64,000 nt of DNA, taken from an uncultured Gammaproteobacteria bacterium. GTDB taxonomy: Bacteria > Myxococcota_A > UBA796 > JAJRTE01. The notes beneath the pieces are model-generated. The model made no database searches. It was given only the letters and a program-made list of their open reading frames with translations, and was not told where the DNA came from. The stretch is from the NCBI GenBank assembly GCA_964418585.1, contig CAYQMG010000089.1:95185-159184 (forward strand). The letters run 5' to 3'. A program made the translations under genes and the position numbers. Numbering within the stretch: the stretch's first letter is position 1; every line of letters begins with the position of its first letter. Shown here one piece after another: positions 4,741 through 59,807 of this stretch.

Positions 4741-4879
4741 CGCTCGTCACGGTGGCCCAGCCGGAGTGGGGCGGCCTTCTCTTCACGAACGTTTCCAGGG
4801 ATTCCTCTCCCTCGCTGTTCTGCGTGCACGCTTGTGACCCGTTCGTTGCATTCTGCGAGTGCTGGTTTGTTTGCACGGA

Positions 4880-7282
4880 TCACCAGGAATCTCCGGCGGA
4901 TCGAAAAGCCGGGACGAACAGGTCACCTCCGGCCTCCGGTGTCGTACGGTCGGAATCCAGGGCGAGGTAGGCATACACTCCGACGCAGGCGCACGGGGAA
5001 GGTTGGTAACGGAGTTCGAGGCGGCGGGTCAAGGGCCGTGGTGTGTCGGTCAGGCTGAAGCTGGTGTGGGCCGCAATCGAGAGTCCATCCGGGATCGGTT
5101 TGGCGACCAGGCCGGGGAGAAGAGCAAGATCCAGAGAAGCCTGGAGGTCGACGAACGCTCCCCGGTGTTCAGGGGTGGGATAGTGCCCGGCCGGCGGAAC
5201 TGGAGTCCTGTCCGGGTTCAACCAGCCGACCCCATACTGGAAGTCGAAGCCCTGGAACCTGATCCCACCTTGCGCGAAGGCCCAGGAGGCGGTGTGGAGA
5301 TCCGGGGCCAGGAGCAAGGAAAGAGAGAACCGGGTGGGTTGCTGGGCTTCGAGATGTATTTCCCAGTCGGACCACTGTCCAGCGGCCTCCACATTCTTGC
5401 CCAGGGCCACCTCGAGGGTTCCTATCTCGAGCACGCGCATGGCTCCATGTGGGTCGGTCCGGGCACCGAACAGGTGTTGTGACAGGTTGAGGACCATGCG
5501 GCGTGTGGTGGTTCCCGGGTCACCCAGTGGGGGGAGGAATCCGGGGTCGGTTCGGGTCCAGGCGTCGTAGAGGAGACGGATGTGCGGGGTCACTTCGTGG
5601 TCGAGCAGGGACCAGGTGTGCCCGGGACGCTCGAACGTGCGGCCCATGATAGTCCCCATTTCGGCCGAGAGCGGTATGCGATGGCGGACCGGGAAGAGGG
5701 GGTGGGCCGAGTCCGAAGGTGCGGACGGATAGGACACCTGGATCGCGTAGGCGGCTTCTCCTGTCAGGAACGCGGCGTGTCCGATCTGGCCTGTCCATTC
5801 CAGGCGGGTGGTGGAAGCGGCGTGAACACGCGCCTCCTCGTTGGGGGCTCCAGGGACAGGGAATCTGGTATCGTTGCCCAGGGCCTGGCGGAATGCGGAC
5901 CAGTCGAGGCGCAATCGGGCGGTTCCCCCGGCCATCCGGCGGGGGGGGCTGGAGTATGCGCCGAGCACCTCCGGAACCCTGCCAGCGTGTGAGAAGGTGC
6001 CCTCCCGGGTGGAGATCTGTTCCCGAAGCCCTGTCGAGAGGAACCAGGGACCCGGTGCCGTTTCCACTGCCAGCCTGGAAAGGTGGCGGGCGTCCACGCG
6101 GGCCGACACGGAATTCCCAAAGTCGGCGAGGAAATTCGGGTCTCCGGGAAGGTCGAGGTCGAGGTGCATTCCCAGGAGGCGACCCGCCGGACGGTCGTGA
6201 CGCCAGGTGAGTGCCCACCGGGCGGGTGGTGTGTCCGGCATGCGGTCCCCGTGGACGACCAGCCGGGCCTCGCCCTCACCGACCCCCCCCCGGTAGTCGG
6301 CCCCGCCATTCACCCACGGCCCTCGGCGCTGGAGCCACCCGACCTCCAGGGCCAGTTTCTGTTCACCGTGGGTGCGCCAGACCCAGGGGAACGCGATGTC
6401 GACCCCATCCTGGTTACGGGAGACTCGAGGTGCTCGGGGCCCGGAGTAGCTTCCCGGCTCGAGGGGGACGTGCCAGCCGGGGAGGTAGAGAACTGGAACA
6501 CCCAGGACCCGAACCACGCTCGATTTGAGCCGGAGGCGGGGGGAAGCCGCCGCTTCTTTGTGCTCCCCTGGACTCGCGTCGAGGGGAGAAAGCAGGGCGC
6601 TTCGTGCGGTGACGGAGAGGAACGGCCGGCGTACCCGTCCCCCGCCTTTCTCGGGGCTGGAACGGCTTGAGGGAAGGCAGCCGCAGGGAACAAGGCGAAT
6701 GTCGGACAGGCACAGACCGGTCCCGGGTGCCCAGCGTCCCCCGGCGGCTCCGAGGCGTATCCCGGCTCGAGGCCACTCCAGGCGACAGGATGTGAGGGAA
6801 ATCTGGCCGACCTCGAGGTCAAGGGTGGCACCCGAGGCTTGGACCAGGAGCGCTCCCGAGTCCCATCGGACAGGTCCCTGGAGTCTTGCGAGGCCTCTGT
6901 CCAGATCGATGACGGCGGAAGAGGCGCTCAGCGCGTGGGCCCCCCACTCGATCCAGGTCCCTGCGTGACTCTCGACGCGATGGGACGCTGGGTCCAAGGT
7001 GATGGTGCCGGCCCGAAGCTCGAAACAGGAAGGCGACGTGTTCCGGGCCGTGCTGACCGAAGTCGGGTCGGCGTGCTGAGAGCCAGCCGGGTTCTGCGCA
7101 TGGACCGGGAAGTACAAGAGCGTGCTGAGGACCGCCAGGAACGAGGCGATCCCGGGCGGGCAAGAGTGCAACAATCGGCCGGGACCTCGAGTCGGGTCGT
7201 GCTGCCGCGGGTCGCTGCACGGGCAGTCCTTCCGGACGTGGAGCACGGCCGGCCGGCGGTCAGGAGGGGGGGCAAGGGTCAT
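4880..7282 (-). CDS. lptD: LPS-assembly outer-membrane protein LptD (OstA family)
   Basis: Track ORF 4880..7990 trimmed: upstream part overlaps folC in another frame. OstA-like N-terminal region and barrel motif ...RVLGVPVLYLPGWHVP. ATG at 7282 shares one base with the folC stop (TGATG); true start may be a downstream TTG near 7165 just before the signal peptide. Confidence 0.75.
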   Translation of the reverse strand: MTLAPPPDRRPAVLHVRKDCPCSDPRQHDPTRGPGRLLHSCPPGIASFLAVLSTLLYFPVHAQNPAGSQHADPTSVSTARNTSPSCFELRAGTITLDPASHRVESHAGTWIEWGAHALSASSAVIDLDRGLARLQGPVRWDSGALLVQASGATLDLEVGQISLTSCRLEWPRAGIRLGAAGGRWAPGTGLCLSDIRLVPCGCLPSSRSSPEKGGGRVRRPFLSVTARSALLSPLDASPGEHKEAAASPRLRLKSSVVRVLGVPVLYLPGWHVPLEPGSYSGPRAPRVSRNQDGVDIAFPWVWRTHGEQKLALEVGWLQRRGPWVNGGADYRGGVGEGEARLVVHGDRMPDTPPARWALTWRHDRPAGRLLGMHLDLDLPGDPNFLADFGNSVSARVDARHLSRLAVETAPGPWFLSTGLREQISTREGTFSHAGRVPEVLGAYSSPPRRMAGGTARLRLDWSAFRQALGNDTRFPVPGAPNEEARVHAASTTRLEWTGQIGHAAFLTGEAAYAIQVSYPSAPSDSAHPLFPVRHRIPLSAEMGTIMGRTFERPGHTWSLLDHEVTPHIRLLYDAWTRTDPGFLPPLGDPGTTTRRMVLNLSQHLFGARTDPHGAMRVLEIGTLEVALGKNVEAAGQWSDWEIHLEAQQPTRFSLSLLLAPDLHTASWAFAQGGIRFQGFDFQYGVGWLNPDRTPVPPAGHYPTPEHRGAFVDLQASLDLALLPGLVAKPIPDGLSIAAHTSFSLTDTPRPLTRRLELRYQPSPCACVGVYAYLALDSDRTTPEAGGDLFVPAFRSAGDSW

Positions 7283-8577
7283 CACAACAGCCGCGTTTTC
7301 GGTAGGGTCCGCTCCACCGCCTGTTCTGCTTCCTGGACCACCGAGAGGGAACCGCACAGGAGGTTTACCCCGGCAGGGTTGTATCCGAATTCCGACACCG
7401 CGTCCGCGATGGTGGGCATGGTGCGAATCTGCGGTTTTTCTGCACCGGGAGGGATCACTTCTTGAGCCACCTCGTGCGCCAGGCGGGCGAGGGCTTCCGG
7501 TGGGACGCACCGAGGGGCCGAACTCCGGGTGCACAGGATCCGGTCCGTACCGGGGAGCAGCGCTTCGAGGAATCCCTTGATATCCTTGTCCGAATAGATG
7601 GCAATGGCCACCCAGCGAGGACCGGATTGCCAGTGCGTTTTCAGCGTCCGGGCCAGGGCCGATGCCGCGTCCGGGTTGTGTCCCCCGTCCACAAGGAAAC
7701 GGTATCCTTCCGGGTGCACGAACCATTCGAGTCGACCACGGACCGCAGCCGCGCGGAGACCTTCCCGGACGGCCTCGGGGGAGATGGCGAAGCCCATGTG
7801 ATTGAGGCGTGATGTCGCCTGTACAGCGAGCGCGGCGTTGTGCCGCTGGTGCACACCGAGGAGTCCGATACGCAGTCCCTCGATCCGGATTTCCCGGTTG
7901 GTGAAGACGAGGTTGTCGTCGGCGCCCTGAAGATGGAAGTCCTCGTCGAGGACATCGAGCGGGGATGCCCGGTTGGTAATTTCCGGACAAAGCAGCCGTC
8001 TCGCAGCTCCGTCGGCGCCGGTGATCAGGGGACGCCCCGGGCGGCCGATGGCGGCTTTCTCGAGGGTAATGGATGCCACGCTCCCCCCCAATTCCTGCAC
8101 GTGGTCCATGGACACGCTGGTGAGGATGGAGAGTATGGGCTCACACACATTGGTGGCGTCGTGGCGTCCGCCCATTCCCACTTCGACGATGGCGATGTCC
8201 GGGCGCTCATGGGCGAAGGAGAGGAACGCCATGGCAGCGGCGCTTTCGAACAGGGTAAGGGGCTCCCGGGCGGCCTGTTTGATTTTTTTTGCCCATGCCT
8301 CACTGTCCCGGGCGGTGATGGGCCGGCCCTGGAGGCGGATCTGTTCGTTGAAGTGGGACAGCGCAGGTGAGGTAAACGTCCCGGTTCGGTAGCCGGCGGC
8401 CCGGAAGATGGTCTCGAGGAAGGCCACGGTGGACCCTTTTCCGTTGGTGCCGCCCACCAGGATGGTGGGCACGGCCCGTTCGGGGTGGCCCATCCGGTCG
8501 AGCGCGCGGCGGAATGGTCCGGTCGTCTGACGTTGTCCAGGAGTTATCCAGTTGGCGAGGTAGTCGGGAGTCTGCAT
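7282..8577 (-). CDS. folC: Bifunctional folylpolyglutamate synthase / dihydrofolate synthase
   Basis: 431 aa; P-loop VGGTNGKGST and Mur-ligase-like layout; conserved accD-folC synteny. Confidence 0.9.
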   Translation of the reverse strand: MQTPDYLANWITPGQRQTTGPFRRALDRMGHPERAVPTILVGGTNGKGSTVAFLETIFRAAGYRTGTFTSPALSHFNEQIRLQGRPITARDSEAWAKKIKQAAREPLTLFESAAAMAFLSFAHERPDIAIVEVGMGGRHDATNVCEPILSILTSVSMDHVQELGGSVASITLEKAAIGRPGRPLITGADGAARRLLCPEITNRASPLDVLDEDFHLQGADDNLVFTNREIRIEGLRIGLLGVHQRHNAALAVQATSRLNHMGFAISPEAVREGLRAAAVRGRLEWFVHPEGYRFLVDGGHNPDAASALARTLKTHWQSGPRWVAIAIYSDKDIKGFLEALLPGTDRILCTRSSAPRCVPPEALARLAHEVAQEVIPPGAEKPQIRTMPTIADAVSEFGYNPAGVNLLCGSLSVVQEAEQAVERTLPKTRLL

Positions 8578-8598
8578 GGTCTGCCACCCTGTATCGAG

Positions 8599-10683
8599 TC
8601 AGTGATACAACATGGCATAGATATTGGCAACCACTCGACGCATCTCCTTGCGTTCCACGATCATGTCCACCATGCCGTGCTCGAGCAGATATTCGGCCCG
8701 CTGAAACCCTTCTGGTAGTTTCTGGCGGATGGTCTGCTCGATCACGCGGGGACCGGCGAACCCGATGAGTGCGCCTGGCTCGGCGATGTTGACATCACCG
8801 AGCATGGAGAAGCTTGCGGCCACGCCGCCGGTGGTGGGATGACAGAGGAGGGAGATATACGGGAGGCGTGCGTCCTTGAGCCTGGCCAGGGCGGCGCAGG
8901 ATTTGGCCATCTGCATGAGCGAGAGGACGCCTTCCTGCATGCGAGCGCCTCCTGAGGCGGCGATGAGGATGGCGCCTGTTCCAGCTTCCCGGGCGCGTTC
9001 GAACATGCGGGTGACCTTTTCTCCCACGACCGATCCCATGGAGCCGCCCAGGAATGTGAAGTCGAACACGCCGATATGGACCGGCAGGTCATCGATTCGG
9101 GCGGAGCCATAGAGGAATGCGTCCCGGACGCCCAACTTTTTCTGAACCGCCTGAAGCCGCTCCCGGTAGGTTTTCGAGTCCTTGAACTCGAGGGGGTCGT
9201 CGGGGACGATGTTGGCGTCCAGTTCGACGAAGGTGCCGGGGTCCACCATCATTTCGACGCGGCGAGGCGCCGGCAGGTAGTGGTGGAAGCCGCAGCGGGT
9301 GCACACGTTGAGGTTTTGTTCGAAGTCGGGGCGGTAGATGATTTCCCGGCAGCTCTTGCACTTGAACCAGATGGCCTCGAGGGGCCTGCTGGCCTGGGGC
9401 GGCACGTTGTCGAGGGACTCGCCTTGCGTGTCCGTGGCCGGGACCCATTGAGGCACCACCCCCTGTTGTCCGGGTACGGCGGTGGGGCCGGCGTTGCTGA
9501 CCAGTTCTTCGAACAGGCGGCTTCCCGGTGGGGCATGGCGTTCTGGGACGAGTTGTTCCATCACCAGGTCGTGGAGGATGGGTCGGAACTGTGCGATTTT
9601 TTCGTTGTCGCGTGAGGGATGGACCCGGTTGGTCAGCAAGATGACGATGATTTCCCGGGCCACGTCGATCCACAGGGAAGTGCCCGTGAATCCGAGGTGG
9701 CCGACACTCAGGCCGCTGAAATGCTTGCCGGCGGCGGAGCCTTCTCGAGCAGGGACATCCCAGCCGTAGGCGCGCATGGTGCCGTTGGGAAACACGCGCC
9801 GACGCCAGAATTCCCGGACCACGTCGGGGCCGAAGACGAGCCCCCGTTCGCCGTGATAGGCCCTGAGCATGGTGACCGCGAGTGCGTGGATCTCCTCGGC
9901 GCAGGAGAACAGGCCTGCGTGTCCGGACACGCCGCCCATCGCGTGTGCATTGTCGTCGTGGACTTCTCCGGTCAGGTACCGGTCCAGGCGCTTGTTGTAC
10001 TCGGTGGTGGCGAAGGCCTCGAGGGGGAGTCCACGCCGAGGTGGGCGTTCATCCAGGGGGAGGAAGAATGTACGAGTCAGGCCGAGGTGGCGGTAGATGT
10101 GTTCTTCGCAGAACCGGTCGAGCCGTTCCCCGGTGTTTCGTTCGATGGCCTCGGTCAGGAGGATGAAGCCGAGGTCGCTGTAGATGGCCGTCTCACCCCT
10201 GGGTTTCGCCTGGGGGGAATTCATCACCTCGGCGATGATGGCCGCGCGCGCTTCCGGCGTTCCGGGTTCGAGTCGGCCGTGGGCCGGGTTGTGGACGATC
10301 TCCTCGTGAAAGGGGCGCCAGGCAGGCAACCCGGCCCCGTGCACCAGGAGGTCCGAAATGAGGATGCGGTCCTTCCAACCTCCGCGATATTCCGGGATGT
10401 GCCGTGACACCGGATCTTCGAGCGACATGCGGCCGCGTTCGGTCAGGCTCATCACGGCCGGGGTGGTGGCCAACACCTTGGTCAGTGACGCCAGGTCGAA
10501 GATGGTGTCCGGGGCCATCTCCCGCGTCTCCGGCAATCGTTGAGCGAGGCCGTATGCCTTGAAGTGGCGAATCACGCCACCCGCAGAGACCAGCACGACC
10601 GCTCCAGGGAATACTCCATCGCCCACCGCGTCTTCGACGCACCGATCCACCCGGGGCGACAGGCTCTTCTCACCACTCTCCAT
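8599..10683 (-). CDS. accD: Beta-lactamase-fold serine hydrolase fused in frame to acetyl-CoA carboxylase carboxyltransferase beta subunit (AccD)
   Basis: Single 694-aa ORF with no in-frame stop. N-terminal ~380 aa carry SxxK (FDLASLTKV), YSD and HLGFTGT motifs of class C beta-lactamase/esterase fold; C-terminal ~270 aa are clear AccD (Zn-ribbon CKSCREII...CTRCGFHH, then ...LGGSMGSVVGEK...PTTGGVAASF). Confidence 0.85.
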   Translation of the reverse strand: MESGEKSLSPRVDRCVEDAVGDGVFPGAVVLVSAGGVIRHFKAYGLAQRLPETREMAPDTIFDLASLTKVLATTPAVMSLTERGRMSLEDPVSRHIPEYRGGWKDRILISDLLVHGAGLPAWRPFHEEIVHNPAHGRLEPGTPEARAAIIAEVMNSPQAKPRGETAIYSDLGFILLTEAIERNTGERLDRFCEEHIYRHLGLTRTFFLPLDERPPRRGLPLEAFATTEYNKRLDRYLTGEVHDDNAHAMGGVSGHAGLFSCAEEIHALAVTMLRAYHGERGLVFGPDVVREFWRRRVFPNGTMRAYGWDVPAREGSAAGKHFSGLSVGHLGFTGTSLWIDVAREIIVILLTNRVHPSRDNEKIAQFRPILHDLVMEQLVPERHAPPGSRLFEELVSNAGPTAVPGQQGVVPQWVPATDTQGESLDNVPPQASRPLEAIWFKCKSCREIIYRPDFEQNLNVCTRCGFHHYLPAPRRVEMMVDPGTFVELDANIVPDDPLEFKDSKTYRERLQAVQKKLGVRDAFLYGSARIDDLPVHIGVFDFTFLGGSMGSVVGEKVTRMFERAREAGTGAILIAASGGARMQEGVLSLMQMAKSCAALARLKDARLPYISLLCHPTTGGVAASFSMLGDVNIAEPGALIGFAGPRVIEQTIRQKLPEGFQRAEYLLEHGMVDMIVERKEMRRVVANIYAMLYH

Positions 10684-10704
10684 CGGGCTCTCCCCTCTGT
10701 TCCG

Positions 10705-11625
10705 CTATGTGACGGCAGGCTGAACGAGTTCCAGCTTGCCCGTATCCCCATCCAGCACCGCACGGGCACCAATGGGCAAGGTCAGGTTGTCCTCACCATG
10801 GCCGAAAGGAAACCCGGCCACCACCGGTCCCGGCACCTCACCGGCGTATTCCGCCACGATGTCCAGAATCGGTCGGCCTCCCCCGCCGGGTTCCCGGCAG
10901 TCCTTGAACTCTCCAATCACCAGCCCGGCGGCTTCCTGGAGTTTGCCTGCAAGGTGGAGCTGGGCCAGGAGCCGATCCACACGGTAGGGCCGCTCCCCCA
11001 CCTCCTCCAGGAGCAGAAGCTTGCTCCGGGTATCGATCTCGAAAGGCGTTCCCAGAGTCGCTGCCACCAGGGACAGATTGCCACCGCAAAGACGCCCGGC
11101 GGCTCGCCCCCCTCTCAGGCGCACCTGCGGTCCTCCTGACGAGACCAGGGGGTCCGGAATTCGCCCCGGCTGGGACAACAGACCGATCATCTGGTCCAGA
11201 CTCCTCCTTCCCGTCTTGCCCAGACCGGCCACAAGCGGTCCGTGAAAAGTGATGAGTCCCGCCTCCTGGGTGATCCAGTTGAGCAAGGGGGTCAGGTCCG
11301 AATGGCCGAGCACAACCCTTGGCCTCGAGACAAGGCCGTCGAGCCTGACCCTGCCCAGCAGGTGCATCAGTCCGAACCCGCCGCGCGCGAAGAGAATTGC
11401 TGCCAGATCCGGGGAATCCAACATCTCCTGCAACTCGGCCTCGCGCCGCGCCCGGGAACCTGCCAGGTAGTGATACCTCTCGTGAATGTCCTCCCGGTAA
11501 CGAACCTCGAACCCTTGCGCCCGCAGCCAGGCCACACCGGCCTCGAATGCCCTGCGATCGAATCCGCTCGAAGGGGCGGCGATGCCGATGACGTCACCCT
11601 GGTTCAAGGCTGGTGGAGCAATCAT
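10705..11625 (-). CDS. LD-carboxypeptidase (peptidase S66, LdcA-like)
   Basis: 306 aa; N-terminal GDVIGIAAPSS and overall S66 layout; downstream of accD cluster. Confidence 0.8.
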   Translation of the reverse strand: MIAPPALNQGDVIGIAAPSSGFDRRAFEAGVAWLRAQGFEVRYREDIHERYHYLAGSRARREAELQEMLDSPDLAAILFARGGFGLMHLLGRVRLDGLVSRPRVVLGHSDLTPLLNWITQEAGLITFHGPLVAGLGKTGRRSLDQMIGLLSQPGRIPDPLVSSGGPQVRLRGGRAAGRLCGGNLSLVAATLGTPFEIDTRSKLLLLEEVGERPYRVDRLLAQLHLAGKLQEAAGLVIGEFKDCREPGGGGRPILDIVAEYAGEVPGPVVAGFPFGHGEDNLTLPIGARAVLDGDTGKLELVQPAVT

Positions 11626-11735
11626 GCTGGCATGATGCGTGAACCTGGATCGCGATTCAACGAAATTCCATCCTGGTCATCCGATTCCCAGATGTGACCC
11701 AGGGCCGGATGGCCTTCTCGAGCCGAGGAGAGTCC

Positions 11736-12878
11736 TCATGAGGTGCAGAACGAGGTGTCGGAAGGGGGCCGGACCATTTCACACGCTTCCAGGTGAAGCC
11801 GCTCGAACGGGCAAGACGGGCAGTCCAGCTTCTCAACCCTTCCTGTCGGAGCACAGAGGGCCGTCGGCATGCCCCGGACAGGGTCGAGGAATCCTGCAGC
11901 AAGGCGGAGGAGCACATCGAGAGGAATCGCCGAGGGGGGCACGGTCGGGTTCTTGGGGCTTCCCTTGGACAGAATCTTGCCCGAGTCATGAAGGTACCAC
12001 CCCGCAACAGTCCCCACGTCGCGGAGACCCTCCTCTGGGACGGACTGGCCTCGTACCACGCATTCGGCGATTCGAACGGCTTCTGCCAGGGCGCCGAGAT
12101 GGAGTCGGCCGAGTTGCCCGTTGCTTCTCACCGTGATCCCGGTGTGCCCGCGGGAGTTGCGGTGCACGATGAGATCGGCCCGGTGCAGGCGGGCCACCTT
12201 GAGGGCTGCGGTGCTGTCCGACACCAGGGACACCACCCGGCTGCCGTCCGACAGTCGGAGGATCGTGGCGGTCTTCTTGAAATCGGTCCGTGCCCGGGTC
12301 CAGTCGCGCTCCGTCGCATAGGCCGCGTCATACAGGTCCATCATGATGTCCGTGACACGGTCAGGGCTGTCCGGGTGCACGATGTTGAGCCCCCGGATGA
12401 GATTCGGGAGACACACAAGGTGATCCATGGGATTCCGAGACGCGATCGACCGCGCCCGGGTCTCCTGGAGGCGAACGAACTCGAGAAGCTTGGTGAGTTC
12501 CGGTTCCTCGTTCACGCCCAGGTCCTTGGCCACGAGCCAGGACGCGGACTTGTCTTGCTTCGAACTGTCTCGAGCCCCCTGGTGTGCGTGGGTGTCGAGT
12601 CGCCCACCGCCTGTGTCGACGGCGAGAATGCCCCGATCTCGTTCCAGGGTGTCCGGGTCCAGGCCGTCAGGGAGTTGCCCGGCCGGTACGTAAAGGACCG
12701 GAACCTGGTCGATGCCCGGATACCGATCCCGTCCGAATCGGCGCAGGAGCCAGATACAGAGCGTGTTGTCCAGGTCAGGATTCTCGTGGGTCAAGATCGC
12801 TTTCACGGATTGTTTCCTGTCGGTTGCCATGGGCGATTTCTGGCGGTCGGTGCCGGTGACCACGATGACAACCTCCAT
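11736..12878 (-). CDS. Hypothetical protein with DHH-phosphoesterase-like N-terminal motif
   Basis: 380 aa; HENPDLD near N-terminus resembles DHH motif I and LDTHAH a degenerate motif III; C-terminal CPSCP. Start could also be ATG 12830 (MATDRKQ). Confidence 0.4.
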   Translation of the reverse strand: MEVVIVVTGTDRQKSPMATDRKQSVKAILTHENPDLDNTLCIWLLRRFGRDRYPGIDQVPVLYVPAGQLPDGLDPDTLERDRGILAVDTGGGRLDTHAHQGARDSSKQDKSASWLVAKDLGVNEEPELTKLLEFVRLQETRARSIASRNPMDHLVCLPNLIRGLNIVHPDSPDRVTDIMMDLYDAAYATERDWTRARTDFKKTATILRLSDGSRVVSLVSDSTAALKVARLHRADLIVHRNSRGHTGITVRSNGQLGRLHLGALAEAVRIAECVVRGQSVPEEGLRDVGTVAGWYLHDSGKILSKGSPKNPTVPPSAIPLDVLLRLAAGFLDPVRGMPTALCAPTGRVEKLDCPSCPFERLHLEACEMVRPPSDTSFCTS

Positions 12879-12985
12879 GCCCCGGCTCCGGCACGGAGGC
12901 GCGCACTCCGCCCGGGTGCACGAGCGCGCTACTCTAGTCGATGTTTAGGGAAACTGTCAAGGAGCTTTTCCGCCGACACATGGGG

Positions 12986-15820
12986 TCAGGCAAGGGTCCG
13001 CGCACACCGGAACCCGGCTACCCCCTTGGAAAGCACTGGATCAAGGAAGGAACGGCTGGCGCAGCGCATGTACCGGTCCGTGTCCACCCAGGCACCGCCC
13101 TTGAGCACACGGAGGCCCTGCGACTCGTTGTACCAGTCATCGCACCATTCGCGCACACCTCCCGCCATGTCCCGGACACCGTAGGGCGAGATGTCTTCTG
13201 GAAAACTCTTGATGGGCTCGGGCTCCGGTGCCCAAGGGCGGGAAAGCCGGGACTTGCAGAATGTGGGGTCGAACTGGTTGCCCCACGGAAACACACGCTC
13301 GTCCGCTCCCCGACCCGCCTTCTCCCATTCCACCTCGGTGGGCAGCCGGAACTCCATGCCCGATATCTCCGATTGCCAGGCGCAATAAGCTTCGGCAAAT
13401 TCGAATTCGACGCCAAAAATGGGCACGTCGTAGGCCATTCCGGGACGGCCCAGAGCACGTCCTTCCGGCCCAATCAGGTCCGGGATCGGCTCGTACCCGT
13501 TGGGCCCCAGCACCACCAGGGGAAGCCCCTCGTCCAGCCTCGGCTTGAGCCGCTCCGCTTCCGCTGGATCCACCTCGAGCCAGGCGTTCAGGAACTCGAT
13601 GTACTTGCGAAACGTGACTGGGAACTCCTGGATGGCAAAGCTCGCCACCAGTTTTTTCTCCTTCGGGTAGCCGTCAATGGCCTCCCGGTCGCCCCCGAGA
13701 AAGACCTCGCTCTCCGGAACATAGACGAATCCATCCCCGATTTCGGCATGGGTCCGCATCTTGATGGCAGCCCGGCACGTTTCCTGTCGTTCCAGCTTTA
13801 CCGGGTAGTAGACATCGCGGTATCCGGCTGCTCGAAGCACGATGAGGTAGCTTCCTTGGGGCAGGGCCACCTCCTCCACGGGGGTGTAGCCGAGCATGCG
13901 CGCGTCCACAGGTCGCAACACCCGGTCGCGTTCCTCATACCGGTAGAACCACACCTCTGCACCGGCTGGTTGGGAGGAGACCGAGAGGGTCCCCTCACCC
14001 TTGAGGAACGCTGCGTACCGTTTGACGGTGTACTGCCTCACCATGGATTCGCAGTAGATGGCTTCCGAGCGGTCGCCTTCTCGAATGGCCTTGCGATACT
14101 GGCTGACGAACAGGTCGGCCAGGCCTTCGCGTGCGTCCCGGTTGGAGGGGTCGTGGGCCAGGGCCTGACTGAAACGAGCGACGGCCTCCCCGAACGTGGT
14201 GAGAATCTTGGCCTCGATTTCGGCGACGCGATCCCACGTGGCCCAGACGCCGCGCTTGCGTTCGATGGGCTCCCATCCCTGGATTCCGTGTCCTGCGCGC
14301 CGGGCCACGTTCTTGGCCATCAGCAGGTCCTGTTGAAGCTGCTGGTGCTGCTTCACCAGTTCCTGCGCTTCCACGATCTTCTTTTGGGCCTCTTCCCGCC
14401 GCTTGGTTCCCTCCAGATAGGCCTCGAGTTCCTGCTGAAGGTCCTTGACACTCTGGAACCGTTCGTCCGGGTTCTTGGCCAGGCACCGCATGCAGATTTG
14501 CTCGAGTTCCTCTGGAACCTGATTCTGGGGGGCCATGATGGAGGGGCGGACCGGCATCTCAATGGGGACCCGCCGGAGCACTTCCTTGACATCACCCCGG
14601 AAAGGCGGGCGGTAGGTCAGGATCTCGTACAGGATCGCACCCAGCGCATACACGTCGGTACGCTCATCGATTTCGTCATTCCGGCCTCGAGCCTGCTCCG
14701 GCGCCATGTATGCTGGTGTGCCCTCGATCGCGCCGACCAGGGTGTCCTCGGGCGACCCGTGGCGGACGAGCTTGACCACGCTGAGCCCTTTTTCCCGGGC
14801 CTTCTTGGCAGCGTCCGGGCGCAGTCGGGCGACGCCCCAGTCGAGCACGGTCACCTCACCGTAGCTTCCCAGCATGATGTTGGATGGCTTCAGGTCCCGG
14901 TGGATGACCCCGCGGTCGTGGGCATAGGCAACGGCCTGGCATACCTGGAGTAGAATGGAGATGAGGCGCACCGGGCCGTACTGGAGCCGGAGAAGGGGAT
15001 TCTTTTTGCGAAGCCCCACGATGACGTTTTTGAGCGTTCGCCCCTCGATCTTTTTCATCGTGTAGTAGGGCAGTCCATTCTCCAGTCTTCCCAGTTCGTG
15101 CACCGGTATGATGATCGGGTGCTCGAGCTGCCCCGTGATCTGGGCTTCATCGTAGAACTTCCGCACCTGGCGGGCATCGCTCAGGCCCTTGCGCAACAGT
15201 ACCTTCAGCGCGATGGGCCGACCGATGAAGTCGTCCACCGCATGCAGGATGCGTCCCTGTCCTCCCCGATTGAGTTCGCCAAGAACCCGGTAGCGCCCCC
15301 AGCGGGTCGGCACCACGTCGTCAGGAGGAGCCAGTTCAGGGTCGAGCGCCGGGCCCGGGGCCACTCCGCCACCGATTCCGCTCGAGGAGGGATTTCCGCC
15401 CGAAGGCGTGCCGGTGGCCGAACGCACGCCCGAGCCGCCGCTGGCACTCCGCTCATGACCTCCGCCGCTCCCCATCGCCCCGGAGCCCTGGGCCGGCCCC
15501 CTTTCCCTCGAGGCGTCCGCCGTGCGAGAGTCCGCCTCCGATATGTCCTCGAGCTGGACCGATTCGATCACCGAGGAACTCAGGGCGTCCGAGACCATGG
15601 CTTCCAGGTCGATCTCTTCCTCGACGCTCCGGTCGACCTGCGTGACCTCCCCTTCGGAAGCGGTGTCCTCCGGGCCGGTCTGGGCCACCGCCCCGAACAC
15701 GTCGGACAGGAGGCCGGCCTGAAGGGCTTCAGGAGAAATCGGTTCGGAACCGTGACGCTGGAGAAACCGCTCCAGCGCCTCCTTCACCTGTTCGGGAGTC
15801 AACTGTTTCTGCCGCCCCAC
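12986..15820 (-). CDS. Ser/Thr protein kinase fused to PEGA-like and FGE-sulfatase (SUMF1-like) domains
   Basis: 944 aa; Hanks kinase motifs (HRDLKPSNIML, DWGVAR, GTPAYMAPE); C-terminal ...RVLKGGAWVDTDRYMRCASR...GFRCARTLA typical of FGE-sulfatase domain. Confidence 0.85.
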   Translation of the reverse strand: MGRQKQLTPEQVKEALERFLQRHGSEPISPEALQAGLLSDVFGAVAQTGPEDTASEGEVTQVDRSVEEEIDLEAMVSDALSSSVIESVQLEDISEADSRTADASRERGPAQGSGAMGSGGGHERSASGGSGVRSATGTPSGGNPSSSGIGGGVAPGPALDPELAPPDDVVPTRWGRYRVLGELNRGGQGRILHAVDDFIGRPIALKVLLRKGLSDARQVRKFYDEAQITGQLEHPIIIPVHELGRLENGLPYYTMKKIEGRTLKNVIVGLRKKNPLLRLQYGPVRLISILLQVCQAVAYAHDRGVIHRDLKPSNIMLGSYGEVTVLDWGVARLRPDAAKKAREKGLSVVKLVRHGSPEDTLVGAIEGTPAYMAPEQARGRNDEIDERTDVYALGAILYEILTYRPPFRGDVKEVLRRVPIEMPVRPSIMAPQNQVPEELEQICMRCLAKNPDERFQSVKDLQQELEAYLEGTKRREEAQKKIVEAQELVKQHQQLQQDLLMAKNVARRAGHGIQGWEPIERKRGVWATWDRVAEIEAKILTTFGEAVARFSQALAHDPSNRDAREGLADLFVSQYRKAIREGDRSEAIYCESMVRQYTVKRYAAFLKGEGTLSVSSQPAGAEVWFYRYEERDRVLRPVDARMLGYTPVEEVALPQGSYLIVLRAAGYRDVYYPVKLERQETCRAAIKMRTHAEIGDGFVYVPESEVFLGGDREAIDGYPKEKKLVASFAIQEFPVTFRKYIEFLNAWLEVDPAEAERLKPRLDEGLPLVVLGPNGYEPIPDLIGPEGRALGRPGMAYDVPIFGVEFEFAEAYCAWQSEISGMEFRLPTEVEWEKAGRGADERVFPWGNQFDPTFCKSRLSRPWAPEPEPIKSFPEDISPYGVRDMAGGVREWCDDWYNESQGLRVLKGGAWVDTDRYMRCASRSFLDPVLSKGVAGFRCARTLA

Positions 15821-16149: not shown

Positions 16150-19698
<3,549 letters not shown>

Positions 19699-26246: not shown

Positions 26247-29200
26247 TCAGGAGAGGTCGATGTAGCAGTAGACGGGGAAGGGAGAGGCCGGGCGGATTCG
26301 CCAGGAGGTGGTGTGCAGCGTGTGCGCCTGGTTCACCGGGTGCTGATTGAAGTCGAAGCGAGGGTCGTGAACGGAGAAGAAGGCCACGCCCTGGTCCAGT
26401 CGGAGGGTGAGGCGTCGGTTCGGGTTGGACCACAGGATTTCGAGGGTGCGGTGGTGAGCGAGTTTTCGAGGGTGGTCTACCAGTTGGACCTGTGTCTTGG
26501 GGCGGAGGGTTGCGAGGAGGGAGGAGAGGACCTTTTCCTGGGTGGTTGGATTGGTCCAGTCATGGTGGATGAGTCTTGGGGAACGCCAGCCATCCTGCTG
26601 GACGGCGGTGGTGATGATTGAGAGGATGGTATCGGACGAGAGGGTGCCGAGTTTTTCGAGTCCCTGAAGGAGGAGGAACAGGCCGAGCGTGGAGAGTGGG
26701 CTTTTGACGTACCGGTCGGAGTAGGTGACCCGGCGTGCCGGGCCGGCCTGGAGTGCTCTGGCGGTACCGGGGTGAGTTTGTTGGACGAGTTTCCAGAAGT
26801 GGTGAGCGAACCGGGTACGGTTGTGGAACATGGGGTTGTCGTGGTTGATGACGAGTTCGTGCACGGTGCCCGGATCGGGGGGTTGGAGCTGGTCGGGGGA
26901 GAGTGGAGAGAGGTCGTCCGGGAGTGTCGGTGAGTTCAGGGTTGCGTGCACATTGGTGGCGTCCTGGCGTGTGTCGAGCCATGCGGGGCCTGGGAGGAGG
27001 GCGGCGTGGTCGTCGGTGGCGAAGGCGGTGACGGTGTCGTCGTGGTGGAGTTCTGCATAGGTTATTGTGGGGCTGTCGTTTTTCTGGTTGTGTTGGAGGA
27101 AGAGGTGCAACCTGGCGAATTCTGCGAGGTTGGCGAGTTGCCGACGGGTTTGCCAGTCGGCCTGGTCGAGGGCGGATGGGGGGAGGAGGAGGTCCACCTG
27201 GGTACCGGATTCGGCCATGTGGAGGAGGACGTGTCGTGCGTTCCAGGCGCCGAGGTCCCAATCGGCAGGGTTTCCCTGGAGTACGAACCGTGCTCGAGTC
27301 AAGGGGTGGCGCAGTACGACGCGCTGGATGGCCTGAATGGGGGATTGCCATTCCACGGTGGTGGCGTCTCCAAAGCACTTCAAGTCCTGAGGGAGTTCCA
27401 GCGCATGGAGCAACCGTTCGGAGAGGAATGTACGCGCTCGGTGCCGGTTGAGTTGTTTTCTTTCGTGCTGGGTATCGTGTCCGAGGAGGCAGGCGTGGCA
27501 GGCGGCGTCGCAGTGGTTGGGGCAGTCGAGGCGAGCGCGTGCGGCCTTGAGCAGGTGTGTGAGCATGGCCGGTGCCTCGGCGCAGAATCCGGCGCCGCCG
27601 TCGGCGGTGTCGTAGAGGATGACGGCCAGACAGGTGTGTGCTCCCTCGCGCCCGTGTGCCACGGTGCAGCCGATTTCCTCCTCCTCGACGCCCAGGGTTT
27701 CGGCGAGCGCGAGTTTCAGGGCCACGGCGATGGTGATGGCCTCCGATTCCTCCTGGAGCGGCATGCCGGTATGTGGGTTGAGGAAATGGAGTTCGAGCAC
27801 GTCGGTGATGGTGGTGGAGCCCAGGGCCAGGTGTCGCTTGATGGCGAACGGTTCCCCGTTGCCCTCGCAGAGGATTTCGGGGCCTTTTCTTCCGGACGAG
27901 TCGCGTCCTCCTCGCAGGCGTTTGTGCTGGCGCATGGCCTCGGGCAGTTCGGCCGAAGCCGGATTTTCAGGGTCCCAGGGCTCGGAGACGGTTCGACCGC
28001 ACCGGAGGCAGACGGCATAGCCGTGGCCGTGGGCACCGTGGCTGAGGTGGATGAGTTTGCCGTTGGGCGCGTGACGGAGGCGCACGACAGGGGGAGAACC
28101 GAACGGGACGAACGGGTTTTCTCCTGATGAGATCCAGGATTCCAGGGGGGGCATCCAGGGTTTGGCGCCCAGTTCCGTGCTTGCCTTGGAACGGATGTCG
28201 ACGGCAAAGCCGGAGGGGATGAGGAACTGGCGGTGGTGCAGGTTGGAGGAACCGCAGCAGGGGCAGGATTCCACCCAGGTGCGGCCAGCGGTGACCCATC
28301 CACACTGGAGGCAACGGGAACCCACCTGCAGGTCCTGGAGTTCGTTGATCAGATTCTCTGTGGCCTCTGGCGGGATGTGCCAGTTGAGGGTGACTCCCGC
28401 CGACCGATAGGCTCGACCGTCCAGCACCACTTCGAGCCCCGGTGCATATTCGTTCAAGGCCATTCGGAGTTCACGAGTGGGATAGCCGCGCAGGAGCGCC
28501 AGGTTGTCCTCTCGTTTTTCTGACGTTCGTTCCGGCCTGCTCGGGCGCCGACCTCTCTTCCTTCGCACCGCGAGTTCCTCGGCGGTGGTGGTGACGAAGG
28601 GGACCACGTTGGTGGGGAAACCATATCCAGGAAGGAACTGCCGTGTGGCAAGGTAGCCCAGGAGATACTCTTCCCGGTGGCGTTTCAATTGGCGCTGGAT
28701 GGCCAAGGCCACCGGTGAGCCATCCCGGTCTTCGGGTTCCAGCGCGTTCCATTCGGTTTGGAGCCCTTCCAGCGTGTTCAGGTATCCCCTTCGGGCCGCG
28801 TGCATGGATTCGGCCACGTCTTCCAGAAGGTCCTCGATGCGCGTTCTCTCCTTTATCGACCGCCTTCGCAGCACCTCGAGCCGGTATTGCAACTCGTCAC
28901 GAGCCGGTGCGGTTGCCTGGAGATACTCGAAAAACCGGTCGCATACGGAAGGGGCTTCTGAGTCGGCCTCGAAGAACCAGCCGCAATGAAGCTTTGGGAT
29001 GGCCTTGTCTCCGGCCGCCTGGTACTGAAGAAGGAAGTCGGTGAGACAGACCGCGTTCACGTGTCGCTGCACGATGGGTCCACTGTCCAGGCATACGTCG
29101 GTGACGTGGAGCGGCGTGGTGAAGGGCCACAGGGGATTGCGGAATACGGCCTGGTCGTGGGGAAGGTTGCGGCACACGGTCACGCTCACCGCTGTTCGTT

Positions 29201-32200
29201 CGCCTCGACGACCGGCCCGACCCACCCGTTGGAGGAAGTTGGCCGGGTTCGGGGGGGCGTTGTTCATCGACACCGCGGACAACCCACCGATGTCCACTCC
29301 GAGTTCCATGGTGGTGGAACAACTCAGCACATTGATGGAGCCGGCCTTGAACTCACGTTCGTAGCCCTGCAACGTCCCTGCAGGAAGCTGGGCAGAATGC
29401 TCGGCGACCCGAAAATAAAACCACCCCTCCACGATTCGGTCGGTAACCTCGTGCCACACACCGGCGCTCCGGAGTTGCCGCACCTGTTCGTCTTGGGCCA
29501 GCCATGCCCGGATTTGTTCGAGGCTCCAGGGCGTTCCGTCAAAAGCCCGTTTGAAGGCGAACGGGGGGCGGGGCATGGTGACCTTGACACACCGGGTGTC
29601 GTACGCCCAGGGGTCATTGGGTTGGAGCGGTGTGTGCCCTCGCAACGTCGTATCCAGGAGTTGGCCGGTCAGTGGGCAGATCCACGCCTCCTGGATCGGC
29701 TCGAGACATGCCTGTCGTTCCAGGTCGAGCTGGTATCCATCCTGGGTCTGGTGCAGGAGTCGGCGGATGGCTTGCCAGGCTTCGTGGAGAATCTCGTTCA
29801 CCTCCTCGCGGGTTTCCCTGTCGGAACCGAGACCGAAAGCCTGAACCAGGAGGGCGGCGAGGCGCGGTGGCCGGGCGGCCGTCATCCACTGGGGCCACGG
29901 TGTCCGGTGCCGCTCTCGTTTCTCGCCCTGGGGCAGGAGGTAGCTGGGACGGATCCGAGTCCCCATCCAGCGGAACAGCGCCGGTTCCATGGTGAGCGCG
30001 GTGTTGGCCCGAACGAAGAAGTCGAGACAGAGTTTCAGGAAATCCCGCCATGTCTGGAGTGTCTCGCCTCGAGCTTTCCAGGCAGCCGGAACACGGGTGA
30101 TCCGGGTGAGGCCGGGGTAGGTGAGTTTCACGAGTCCCAGGGTCTCCAGTGCGCGTCGGCGGGAAGGTCTCCGGGCGAACTCCCGCACGACCAGGCCTCG
30201 CGCCAGTGCTTGATGGTCCAGGTCGAAGGGATCGTAGGTGCTGCGCGCTGCGTGCATCCAGGAGATCTCCCGTGTTTTCGAAAGTTCCTGGATGGCGGTT
30301 CGGAAGCAGAGAGGTTCGGTCTGGGACAGGCTGTCAATCTCCTGGCGGAGTCGCTCGATGGTTTGGTCGAGCACCGTTCCACGGTCGCCCAGTTCTCGCT
30401 GGAGGGCGAGGAGGCGTCCGAGTTCCGCCTCTTTTTCCTCTCTTTTTTCCTGTTGGTCCGCCTGAGAGGTCCCAGACGTCGCAATGACCTGGGCGTAAAG
30501 AAAACTCCGAACGTAGTTGCGTTCCGAATCCCGCTGGGCCGCCGCTGCAAATCGGGCTGTGCCCTGGCGGCTGTCCGAGAACGTGATGAGTCGCCGACCG
30601 TCGGCGGGGCACCCGTTCCCGGTACGGTCGGCCGGGACCCATTCGAGCAGCCCAGGAAGGACCACGCTCTGGGTGAACTGGATGGCGTTTCGGAACGTTT
30701 TCCAGAAAGGGCGGAGGGACGGGCCCTTGTGGAGGCATCGCGGGCACTGAAGAGGTTCGGAGGCGGATTCCAAAGATTCGAGCACCAGGAAACGGGGGCC
30801 CGGGGTTCCCAGCTCCCCTGTTTTTGGATCGAGTGTTTCCAGGTCCGGAGAGGAGGGGTCTGGGGGCGGTGCGAGCAGGGCCGTGGCGTGGTGTTGGAGC
30901 GGAAAGTGCAATTCGGTACCCATTGGAGTGTCGGCAGGGTGTTCCGGTGCGGGGGACTCGTCGTCTTCTGGAGCGAACGGATCTTCCTCGTCGTCGGTGG
31001 CCGTGTCGCCCCGGTCCGGTGGGGGGCTGTTTGGAGGAAGGAAGCGGTCGGTGGCGTCCTGCTGCACCACGGTTCCTGCCAGGAAGATCTGGCTGCAGGT
31101 GTTGCACAGGACCAGTTCATACACGAGCGAGCCACAGGCCTTGCAGGTGTGGCGTTCGTTGAAGTAGACCGTTCCAAAAGGCCATTCCGAGGACTGGAGC
31201 GGGCGGTGCGTTTTCCCCGGGCACGCCGGGTTGATACAGGCCCAGAGCCCGGGCTGGGTCCGGGCAAACAGGTGCAAGCGTAGAGGCAGGAACGGGGTGC
31301 CATCCGGGCCTGTCGCGCTGCTCAACAGGTCCAGGAACCGGACGGTCTGCTTTCGGGCCTCGGTTTGCTGTCGTGCCGAAGGGCCGAACAGGGTCTGCGT
31401 CAGGTCCGAGAGGCGGGCGGGTCCTCGGGAGACGAAAGCGCTTCGAACCGTCCGTGCTGGGAGGGAGGAACAGAGTTTCTCGTAGCGTTCGTCCTGGGTA
31501 AGCGCGGAGAGGGCGTCCAGGTCCGGGAACGTGGTCTCGAGCGGGTCTTTGTCGGGTAGCCTCGGAATGTCGTGCCGACCCAGCACCACGTGGACCTGAT
31601 GATCCGGTTGGCCCGATACCGAAGCCAGGAAGCGCCGCAGCGCCTCTTCCGGGGTTCTCCCGTGGCGATCCTTGCCCTGGGACGCGATGGTGGCCGAGGT
31701 GGCGATGAACCGGACGTTCTCGGCCCGGACTTCGAAGGCGGTGAGCACACGACGAAGCAGGAGCGCCAGTTCCGCGGCCTGTGACCCCAGGTAGGTGTGC
31801 GCCTCGTCGATGACCACGTATTTGAGTCGGCCCCGGGAAAGCTCGAGGATCGGATGGTCGGCTGGACGAACCAGCATGTATTCGAGCATGGTCGCATTGG
31901 TGAGGAGGATGGGAGGAGGCGCTTTTCTGAGCGACTTGCGGTCCAGCACCTCCTCGGGCCGGTGGCGCTTCTCCGATTCCGGCAAATGGTCCGGGGTGTT
32001 GCCGTTGTAAAGGCAGAACCGAACCGTGCCGTCGAAGCCTCGAGTCCAGGCTGCCAGCCTGTCCTGCTGGCTGTTGATGAGCGCGTTGAGTGGGTAGAGA
32101 AACAGAGCCTGGACTCCGACCAGCGGCCGTCGCCGGTGCCTCGCCTGGAGGGCGAGATCGTTGAGAATCGGGATGAGGAAGCACTCGGTCTTCCCGCTAC

Positions 32201-32621: not shown

Positions 32622-32669
32622 CGTTCTCTCCTTTTCTGCGAGGAGACGGCCGGGTGAAAGGCGCAAGGG

Positions 32670-36242: not shown

Positions 36243-36506
36243 CCCACTCCCTCCTTGGACGGCACGCGCCTCGACCACCCCGGGACCGGTCCGGGCCGGG
36301 GGGGCTGAAGGCGGGAAAGCGTGGTATTCCCCACCACCTTGCGCCCTGACCGGTCCCGCGGACAAGACCTGCATGGTCTCCTCTTTCAGGTATTGGCGAT
36401 CAGCAACGAGGAACTGACATCGACCGGCGCACCAACTCGAGTTTGACATCCCGGAGCAGGCTGACGAGAATAGCGAAGCGTGCTCGTGTGAAAGGAGGCC
36501 TCCGTC

Positions 36507-54540: not shown

Positions 54541-54599
54541 GGAAGGGTCCGGGCCGGCGGTTCCGGCCCCGGGGGCGAATTTCCCGGGAGGAGGTGACC

Positions 54600-56756: not shown

Positions 56757-56956
56757 CCTCCTGGAACGCACCTGCCGAGCAAGACCGCGTCGGGTCCCCG
56801 CCTGCTCGACGTTGAGCGAAGTCGTTGAAACCTTTTCGTTCTTGTCCCGTTGGTATCTCCGCGGGCATCCGTGCGAGGGTTGGCTTGCACCCCCTTGCGG
56901 GAGTGGTATAATGACCACTGTCGATGCGATGGCTTCTGCACTGGAGGCGGAGAGCG

Positions 56957-59727: not shown

Positions 59728-59807
59728 CCGTGTGGGAGTCGGGGGGGCGAACGGTCTCCCGGAGCCTGGAGTCCATCCGCTTGCGGGCGTCGTGCGGTGA
59801 GGGTGCC

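Follow-up and report, generated by a model that had tools for sequence, protein, structure and literature searches.

An in-frame fusion of an S12-type serine hydrolase to the acetyl-CoA carboxylase subunit AccD in uncultured bacteria

We analysed a 64,000-nucleotide stretch of DNA (hereafter the window; positions 95,185 to 159,184 of contig CAYQMG010000089.1, assembly GCA_964418585.1) from an uncultured Gammaproteobacteria bacterium (GTDB lineage Bacteria; Myxococcota_A; UBA796; JAJRTE01). Between the LD-carboxypeptidase gene ldcA and folC, its reverse strand carries a single gene whose product joins a serine hydrolase to AccD, the carboxyltransferase beta subunit of acetyl-CoA carboxylase (ACC) (Table 1). 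The initial annotation, made from the sequence alone, had described one stop-free reading frame of 694 amino acids in which a domain of about 380 residues bearing SxxK, YSD and HLG motifs runs, at a junction placed at about 9400-9500, into a complete AccD with its zinc ribbon. The open reading frame (ORF) listing of the window and the domain matches bore out each of these points. The ORF starts with ATG, has no internal stop, and encodes the hydrolase (residues 1-380), a linker (residues 381-435) that falls close to the estimated junction, and AccD (residues 436-694); the motifs were found as S66-L-T-K69, Y168-S-D170 and H329-L-G331. In Pfam, Beta-lactamase (PF00144) matched residues 12-363 with 181.6 bits (cutoff 27), Zn_ribbon_ACC (PF17848) residues 439-464 and Carboxyl_trans residues 475-652, while the NCBIfam accD model TIGR00515 matched residues 431-692 (model positions 18-279 of 285) with 375.9 bits against an equivalog cutoff of 317.45. 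The GC content of the three codon positions (0.67/0.45/0.79) follows the pattern of a genuine gene, in the linker as well, third-position GC (GC3) being 0.77-0.79 throughout. AlphaFold2, run on a 102-sequence alignment, predicted two confidently folded domains (pTM 0.60), with a per-residue confidence (pLDDT) mostly above 85 in the AccD half; together with the low pLDDT of residues 381-435, this is as expected for two bodies on a flexible tether.

Table 1. Coordinates of the fusion gene, its parts and other features of the window
Feature	Position	Strand	Remarks
Whole fusion gene	8599..10683	-	One ORF of 694 residues; ATG 10681..10683, stop 8599..8601
Shine-Dalgarno AGGGGAG	10690..10696	-	6 nt 5' of the fusion ATG; anti-Shine-Dalgarno duplex -8.3 kcal/mol
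N-terminal serine hydrolase domain	9544..10683	-	Residues 1-380; beta-lactamase/penicillin-binding protein fold, S12-type motifs, no signal peptide
Motif 1, S66-L-T-K69	10477..10488	-	Catalytic Ser and Lys; invariant in 9 fusions and 108 family members
Motif 2, Y168-S-D170	10174..10182	-	YxN box with Asp for Asn; Y168 and D170 invariant in 108 sequences
Motif 3, H329-L-G331	9691..9699	-	KTG/HxG/WxG equivalent; H329 invariant in 108 sequences
Inter-domain linker	9379..9543	-	Residues 381-435; predicted disordered (pLDDT 31-37), variable in sequence and length, in frame
AccD carboxyltransferase beta proper	8602..9378	-	Residues 436-694; TIGR00515
AccD Cys4 zinc ribbon	9292..9369	-	Residues 439-464; PF17848; four Cys in 9/9 fusions
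ldcA (S66 LD-carboxypeptidase)	10705..11625	-	PF02016 and PF17676; 21 nt upstream of the fusion; stop TAG 10705..10707
folC	7282..8577	-	TIGR01499, 295.6 bits; 21 nt downstream of the fusion
Divergent LptD-like gene	4880..7282	-	800 residues; 1-nt overlap with the folC stop
380-residue gene, no family match	11736..12878	-	Directly upstream of ldcA
DruH	32670..37925	-	1751 residues; PADLOC DruH3, 306 bits
DruE	26247..32666	-	2139 residues; DruE3, 2055 bits over full length; Pfam DEAD/Helicase_C/MZB

A search of 5.8 billion proteins (NCBI, JGI, ENA and Logan) returned nine protein clusters with the same three-domain architecture (P0001, the window protein, to P0009), 693-713 residues long and 57-100% identical, and the next matches were stand-alone hydrolases of 380-430 residues. 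At the DNA level each of the nine fusions is a single ORF followed by folC, with no stop or frameshift splitting it into two genes. The ldcA gene lies 5' of the fusion in eight of the nine clusters, that is, on every contig reaching that far (the P0007 gene starts 250 nt from its contig end). The window protein was found identically in separate ENA, JGI and NCBI records, and four of the nine fusion proteins recur identically in separate records. Alignment of the nine showed S66, T68, K69, Y168, S169, D170, H329, L330 and G331 to be invariant. By the pairwise Nei-Gojobori method, the ratio of nonsynonymous to synonymous substitution rates (dN/dS) was 0.09-0.19 for the hydrolase, 0.03-0.15 for AccD, and 0.08-0.23 in close pairs and 0.46-0.59 in deep pairs for the linker; both domains are under strong purifying selection. 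Synonymous divergence among the fusion genes was 1.0-2.4, which puts more than one substitution per synonymous site between the lineages. The linkers, in which only P411, T417 and G421 are invariant, come in six different lengths, all in frame and none with a stop or frameshift. For the 31-41 codons beyond the ancestral termini, the chance that each linker stays free of stops is 0.19-0.50; for all of them to remain open in five or six deep lineages, and for all insertions and deletions to be multiples of three, we roughly estimate a probability of about 1e-5 without selection to keep the frame open. From nine diverged clusters in independent data sets, the shared ldcA-fusion-folC context and the purifying selection, we conclude that the fusion is real, ancient and selectively maintained, in agreement with the first of the two readings offered by the initial annotation, a genuine lineage-specific fusion.

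The N-terminal domain belongs to PF00144 both by its score, which lies above the gathering threshold, and by its beta-lactamase/penicillin-binding protein fold. Five residues (the catalytic S66, K69, Y168, D170 and H329) are invariant in the nine fusions and in 108 family members, and G331, invariant in the fusions, is at least 90% conserved across the hydrolase family. H329-L-G331 aligns with the W-G-G box of the esterase EstB, from which it follows that the family has a His-type third motif. No signal peptide was found on the domain, as position 1 of the Pfam model aligns at residue 12 and leaves no room for one; the N-termini of stand-alone homologues likewise begin directly at the domain, also without a signal peptide. 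Several named families were considered and rejected. Against the class C (AmpC-type) beta-lactamase model bla_class_C the domain scored 43.8 bits (cutoff 415), with HLG rather than KTG and no room for a signal peptide. PBP4B (E. coli YfeW, NF002968) was the best-scoring named NCBIfam model, yet with 156 bits against a cutoff of 385. Family VIII carboxylesterases have a Trp-x-Gly third motif in place of KTG (EstB/EstU1), and the His-type motif sets the domain apart from them. A CubicO self-compartmentalising protease was dismissed on the missing lipocalin C-domain, the missing CubicO motifs and the identity of the C-terminal partner, AccD; the name "CubicO group peptidase" given by JGI is a broad one in the COG style. 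The domain is not a beta-lactamase, and the neutral name used by the initial annotation, a beta-lactamase-fold serine hydrolase, holds.

The best match of the hydrolase family profile in the Protein Data Bank was Pab87 (Pyrococcus abyssi, 2QMI; E 9e-32). Pab87 cuts the terminal D-Ala off pentapeptide muropeptides; the S12 signature is SxxK/YxN/HxG, and proteins of the Pab87 family carry a lipocalin domain at the C-terminus as well as the CubicO motifs YAEAF/L, FFYLN and ERY (PMC2651629). Unlike Pab87, the N-terminal domain has no lipocalin C-domain, the homology being limited to the protease domain (profile residues 9-218); the FFYLN position reads AIYSDLG(F), there is no C-terminal ERY, and motif 2 ends in Asp, not Asn, a peculiarity specific to the family. 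The domain is only about 19% identical to Pab87 and to S12 D-peptidases (R61 DD-peptidase, D-amino acid amidase), and 18-26% identical to family VIII carboxylesterases and acyltransferases (EstB 1CI8, EstU1 4IVI, EstG 7UDA, macrolactin acyltransferase 6KJH, LovD). It differs from the family VIII esterases in its His-type third motif and in a gene context of peptidoglycan recycling instead of ester metabolism. The Streptomyces R61 DD-peptidase is secreted, whereas the family of the N-terminal domain is cytoplasmic.

A domain-profile scan of GTDB species representatives yielded at least 80 further loci, all stand-alone and 37-48% identical among the matches listed, to which the counts given here refer. 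Represented among them are Binatia, Myxococcota, Desulfobacterota, Nitrospirota, Verrucomicrobiota, Spirochaetota and Acidobacteriota. The direct neighbour of the hydrolase gene on the same strand is ldcA in 61 of the 80. Clustering of neighbouring ORFs (loci L006-L085) gave two main operon types, with hyd denoting the hydrolase gene: ldcA-hyd-mpl in 30 of the 80 (for example L016:729-4215 and L030:5082-11884) and ldcA-hyd-mreB-mreC-mreD-pbp2-rodA in about 22. The Mpl representative scored 410.7 bits against the TIGR01081 cutoff of 388.7, and MreB and PBP2 were equally clear. In none of the 80 loci does accD stand beside the hydrolase, and the matches listed for the species representatives included no fusion protein, all of them being stand-alone hydrolases of at most 48% identity. 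We define the LdcA-linked hydrolase subfamily operationally: its members are more than 40% identical along the full domain, lack a signal peptide and have ldcA immediately beside them on the same strand. The N-terminal domain of the window protein falls within it: 41-48% identical to stand-alone members over the full length, it shares their invariant residues, lacks a signal peptide and directly follows ldcA. In the stand-alone proteins the chain ends a median of 11 residues past the conserved His371, near residue 382, and the genes that come next are mpl or mreBCD-pbp2-rodA, whereas the fusion has no stop there and continues in frame into AccD.

Linkage to ldcA and mpl marks the family as one that acts in the cytoplasm alongside LdcA and Mpl, the enzymes that salvage peptidoglycan peptides. 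The N-terminal domain is probably, to judge from its context and its S12 D-peptidase-type motifs, a peptidoglycan-peptide recycling enzyme; the same evidence points to a D-stereospecific peptidase, of which a cytoplasmic DD-carboxypeptidase would be the simplest form. The MurNAc-L-Ala amidase AmiE of B. subtilis was considered as a possible beta-lactamase-fold precedent for an AmpD-like role and set aside, since the papers on it do not give its fold. Source databases label the stand-alone members "CubicO group peptidase" or "serine hydrolase", and they form an unnamed PF00144 subfamily of which full-text literature searches found no characterised member. This widespread S12-type hydrolase family thus appears to be uncharacterised and is a candidate for a new peptidoglycan-peptide recycling step, arguably of wider interest than the fusion. 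Two of the loci are unusual. An Acidobacteriota metagenome-assembled genome (MAG) has two hydrolase copies head to head (L084:4712-7035; reverse strand 4712-5668 and forward strand 6001-7035) with no ldcA nearby. A record titled "MAG: Klebsiella pneumoniae" (L051, CAMBZJ010000022.1) carries a deltaproteobacterial-type ldcA-hyd-mpl cluster with very Ala/Arg-rich ORF translations, which does not resemble Klebsiella, and is probably mis-binned or mislabelled.

The C-terminal 259 residues of the fusion correspond to a full bacterial AccD. The AccD half matched E. coli AccD (8uxz_D, 2f9y_B) with 301 bits, colinear with residues 15-276 and without large gaps, and is 60-65% identical to stand-alone AccDs of Thermodesulfobacteriota, Geobacteraceae and Myxococcaceae. 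These are 281-290 residues long, in keeping with the earlier remark that AccD is normally a stand-alone protein of about 300 residues. The accD-folC(-lptD) gene order is kept; unlike in stand-alone AccDs, the N-terminus is not free and bears a 380-residue enzyme and a 55-residue tether. According to a recent preprint on the E. coli enzyme, biotin carboxylase (BC) and the biotin carboxyl carrier protein (BCCP) are bound by residues 2-23 of AccD together with its zinc domain, Trp3/Ile4 insert into a pocket at the BC dimer interface, and deletion of residues 1-23 almost abolishes activity, the N-termini being stated to be conserved (bioRxiv 10.1101/2024.05.28.596234). Accordingly, 101 of 114 stand-alone relatives of the AccD half have an MxW[FILV]-type motif (MAWFKK, MTWFKK; W-[FILVM]) 21-26 residues before the zinc-ribbon Trp, at a spacing of 22-25 residues in 98 of the 101. 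The genes accA, accB and accC were not found in the 64-kb window.

The surroundings of the gene show how the fusion arose. The order accD-folC-lptD occurs in a Thermodesulfobacteriota relative and accD-folC in a Myxococcaceae relative. In the window, folC directly follows the fusion, so that the accD-folC synteny named in the initial annotation is indeed kept, and the gene after folC is LptD-like, which makes the block ancestral and intact. This 800-residue product had no Pfam match and a weak NCBIfam match to LptD (27.6 bits), and BLASTP aligned it with the LptD of the Thermodesulfobacteriota relative (L094) at 22% identity over 303 columns (E 3e-7). Since Mpl follows the stand-alone hydrolases, we considered whether FolC might be a disguised Mpl; this was rejected, as it is matched by TIGR01499 and the 18 NCBIfam families that hit it at E<=0.01 do not include mpl. 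Two ancestrally separate envelope-related blocks, ldcA-hyd and accD-folC-lptD, are joined here. Because the stand-alone hydrolases end at about residue 382, the hydrolase half is complete and the tether begins at the position of the ancestral stop. The ldcA-hyd pair came to lie at the 5' end of accD-folC-lptD and the stop codon of the hydrolase disappeared, some 30-40 new linker codons and the old AccD leader joining the halves, and translation continues through a predicted disordered tether of 55-70 residues into a complete AccD. The DnaE of the window (16150..19698, forward strand) also gave nine clusters (P0241-P0249), 64-100% identical, after which identity fell sharply to at most 53% (Desulfuromonas, Geoalkalibacter, Geobacter, Deferrisoma), a gap that sets the group apart from every named bacterium. 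The similar identity spreads of the nine DnaE and the nine fusion clusters suggest a deep uncultured clade, with Desulfobacterota as its nearest named relatives, that has the fusion as a shared derived trait.

The explanation that we favour, and hold to be likely, is a genuine translational fusion kept by selection, with the tethered bifunctional protein as the functional product; we are less sure of the specific substrate. The catalytic and structural hallmarks are kept and both halves are under purifying selection, and on these grounds we count the fusion as maintained; both halves are very probably active. The product would be a bifunctional cytoplasmic protein of about 76 kDa. Its C-terminal half is most likely the AccD of the cell, which would pair with AccA for malonyl-CoA synthesis. 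For the N-terminal half, the likeliest activity is that of a D-stereospecific peptidase on peptidoglycan stem peptides: a DD-carboxypeptidase, for example, would turn pentapeptides into tetrapeptides, the substrate of LdcA, whose tripeptide product would go to Mpl. The immediate effect would be that a wall-recycling enzyme is made 1:1 with, and kept beside, the first committed enzyme of lipid synthesis.

Several observations weigh against this explanation. At the usual spacing, all nine fusions lack the MxW[FILV] motif, a loss that raises the possibility that AccD is released by processing or that the holoenzyme assembles differently. Five of the nine have "WNV" 45 residues upstream of the zinc-ribbon Trp, and the window protein has nothing comparable. 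A "V-S-F-K-x-D-E-E-D" stretch in the linkers of P0003-P0007 might possibly be a relic of the ancestral AccD N-terminus, "M-A-W-F-K-K-x-E-E"; the match is short and of low complexity, and it is missing from P0001, P0002, P0008 and P0009. For the clade as a whole there are three options, one of which must apply: ACC is put together in another way, the contact comes from the tether or the hydrolase, or AccD is set free once translated. The accD genes considered are those of the contigs compared and of this window, and a second accD elsewhere in the genomes is possible. In-frame GTG and ATG codons are scattered through the linkers, a few with good Shine-Dalgarno-like sites (P0005, -11.5 kcal/mol; P0008, -7.1 kcal/mol), and some free AccD could be made in some members. 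The substrate assigned to the hydrolase rests on gene context and motifs, the closest solved structures by fold being esterases and acyltransferases. Finally, all of the evidence is sequence from metagenome assemblies.

That last point, with the many long spurious ORFs that high-GC DNA produces, is what could be said for an artefact of sequencing, assembly or gene calling, or for a recent pseudogenising read-through in a single genome. We give such an origin practically no chance: the same architecture recurs in nine clusters that are as little as 57% identical and stem from different samples and assemblers, the identical protein stands in separate ENA, JGI and NCBI records, the GC pattern is that of a real gene, linker included, and purifying selection acts on both halves. 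The artefact reading is effectively refuted. The other reading offered by the initial annotation was that AccD initiates internally; in its fuller form, AccD would be made mainly from a start in the linker, the full-length read-through being a tolerated by-product of stop loss. Every linker does hold an in-frame GTG or ATG. In five of the nine genes a GTG coincides with "WNV", 43 codons ahead of the zinc-ribbon Trp, and P0008 has an ATG there; the Shine-Dalgarno-like sites of P0005 and P0008 are properly spaced; and in E. coli the AccD N-terminus has to be free to insert into biotin carboxylase. We scored all in-frame ATG, GTG and TTG codons of the nine linkers by their anti-Shine-Dalgarno duplex energy and used the true starts of these loci as controls. 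The nine fusion starts, each an ATG, reached -5.6 to -11.0 kcal/mol, whereas the linker candidates averaged -3.8 kcal/mol, compared with -3.1 for the coding background. Neither a start codon nor a Shine-Dalgarno sequence for AccD is conserved across the nine linkers. The candidates in the window are the weakly pairing GTG codons 409, 410 and 427 (-3.2 to -5.3 kcal/mol), P0007, which is closest to P0005, lacks the candidate of the latter, and GTG is the commonest Val codon at 65% GC. A dispensable read-through should moreover have gathered stops or frameshifts at a synonymous divergence above 1, and the linkers contain none; an AccD begun at the linker sites would still be without the MxWF N-terminus. 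At the sequence level, then, internal initiation is not a conserved feature, and we regard the production of two proteins from the one ORF as unlikely.

Two other readings accept the fusion and differ on what it does. The N-terminal domain might be a family VIII-type lipid or acyl esterase, thioesterase or acyltransferase, in which case the fusion would form a direct metabolic link to AccD, for example through acyl or malonyl thioesters. The solved structures closest in fold would suit such an activity, while the His-type third motif and the company of ldcA and mpl speak for the peptidase; we find the esterase-type reading quite improbable. More speculatively, and with a small chance in our view, the hydrolase might be a built-in module of the ACC holoenzyme, so that cell-wall peptide binding or turnover would gate ACC assembly or activity. 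In E. coli the extreme AccD N-terminus plugs into the BC dimer and organises the active complex; what would fit is that this plug motif is gone from the fusions and that a substrate-binding hydrolase on a flexible tether stands in its place. If so, malonyl-CoA and membrane-lipid supply would be matched to wall turnover, a hard-wired answer to the old question of how the growth of wall and membrane is coordinated in bacteria.

Returning to the tethered bifunctional protein, what is new is the domain architecture; the component families are known. Full-text literature searches found no description of a hydrolase-AccD architecture. A HMMER search of 1.84 billion representatives with a fusion profile returned no other two-domain hydrolase-AccD protein among the best 150 matches, a list that omits the nine fusions themselves (presumably absorbed into single-domain 50% clusters) and cannot serve to count fusion lineages. 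AccDs with N-terminal extensions of 250-600 residues exist, and the five that we examined had no recognisable domain there. ACC subunits are fused to one another in several lineages, as in the BC-BCCP of Chloroflexus (PMC11077971). Such proteins (AccD-AccA-type long forms, BC-BCCP) join components of ACC, whereas the fusion in the window adds a complete enzyme of an unrelated pathway. Fusions of adjacent genes are common, and this one may mean little more than co-expression. A wall-recycling enzyme fused to the committed enzyme of lipid synthesis is nevertheless a Rosetta-stone hint of a coupling between wall and membrane growth. It is also a natural experiment on ACC assembly, in which a whole clade caps the AccD N-terminus, recently claimed to be essential, with a 42-kDa domain and no longer has the docking motif: either the filament model drawn from E. 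coli does not apply to all bacteria, or the hydrolase takes part in the complex. The LdcA-linked hydrolase is in turn a candidate for a missing or alternative peptidoglycan-peptide recycling step outside the gammaproteobacterial model. For annotation, a 694-residue "beta-lactamase/AccD" call in the MAGs in question is real and should be neither split, nor flagged as a frameshift, nor read as an antibiotic-resistance beta-lactamase.

The 380-residue gene directly upstream of ldcA had no Pfam and no NCBIfam match. Counterparts 47-52% identical occur at the P0004 and P0008 loci, tblastn gave matches in L001-L005, and genes of 374-404 residues precede ldcA in the same position at P0002 and P0003. 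It is absent from that position in L089 and L090, and at P0005 and P0006 the site is occupied by a DUF6765 gene of opposite orientation; the 380-residue gene may be a further member of the operon. A promoter and terminator scan of 7000..13200 gave matches at chance level, including one TTGACA-18-TAGAGT upstream of the 380-residue gene to which we give no weight, and an Rfam scan of the window found no RNA family at all, hence no taxonomic marker and no riboswitch near the fusion gene.

Further from the fusion, 12986..15820 (reverse strand) encodes, by precomputed Pfam matches, a 944-residue Ser/Thr kinase carrying an FGE-sulfatase domain at its C-terminus. Positions 26247..37925 (reverse strand) hold an anti-phage defence pair of Druantia type III; the DruH models cover only residues 564-1689 of its DruH, which has an N-terminal extension of about 560 residues beyond them. 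Four tightly packed consecutive ORFs at 54594..61847 (forward strand; 720, 327, 607 and 707 residues), with coding-type GC3 and no Pfam match at E<=1e-4, may form an operon. At 41438..43501 (forward strand) lies a gene for a 687-residue protein with four MopE-type metal-binding motifs and seven RCC1 repeats.

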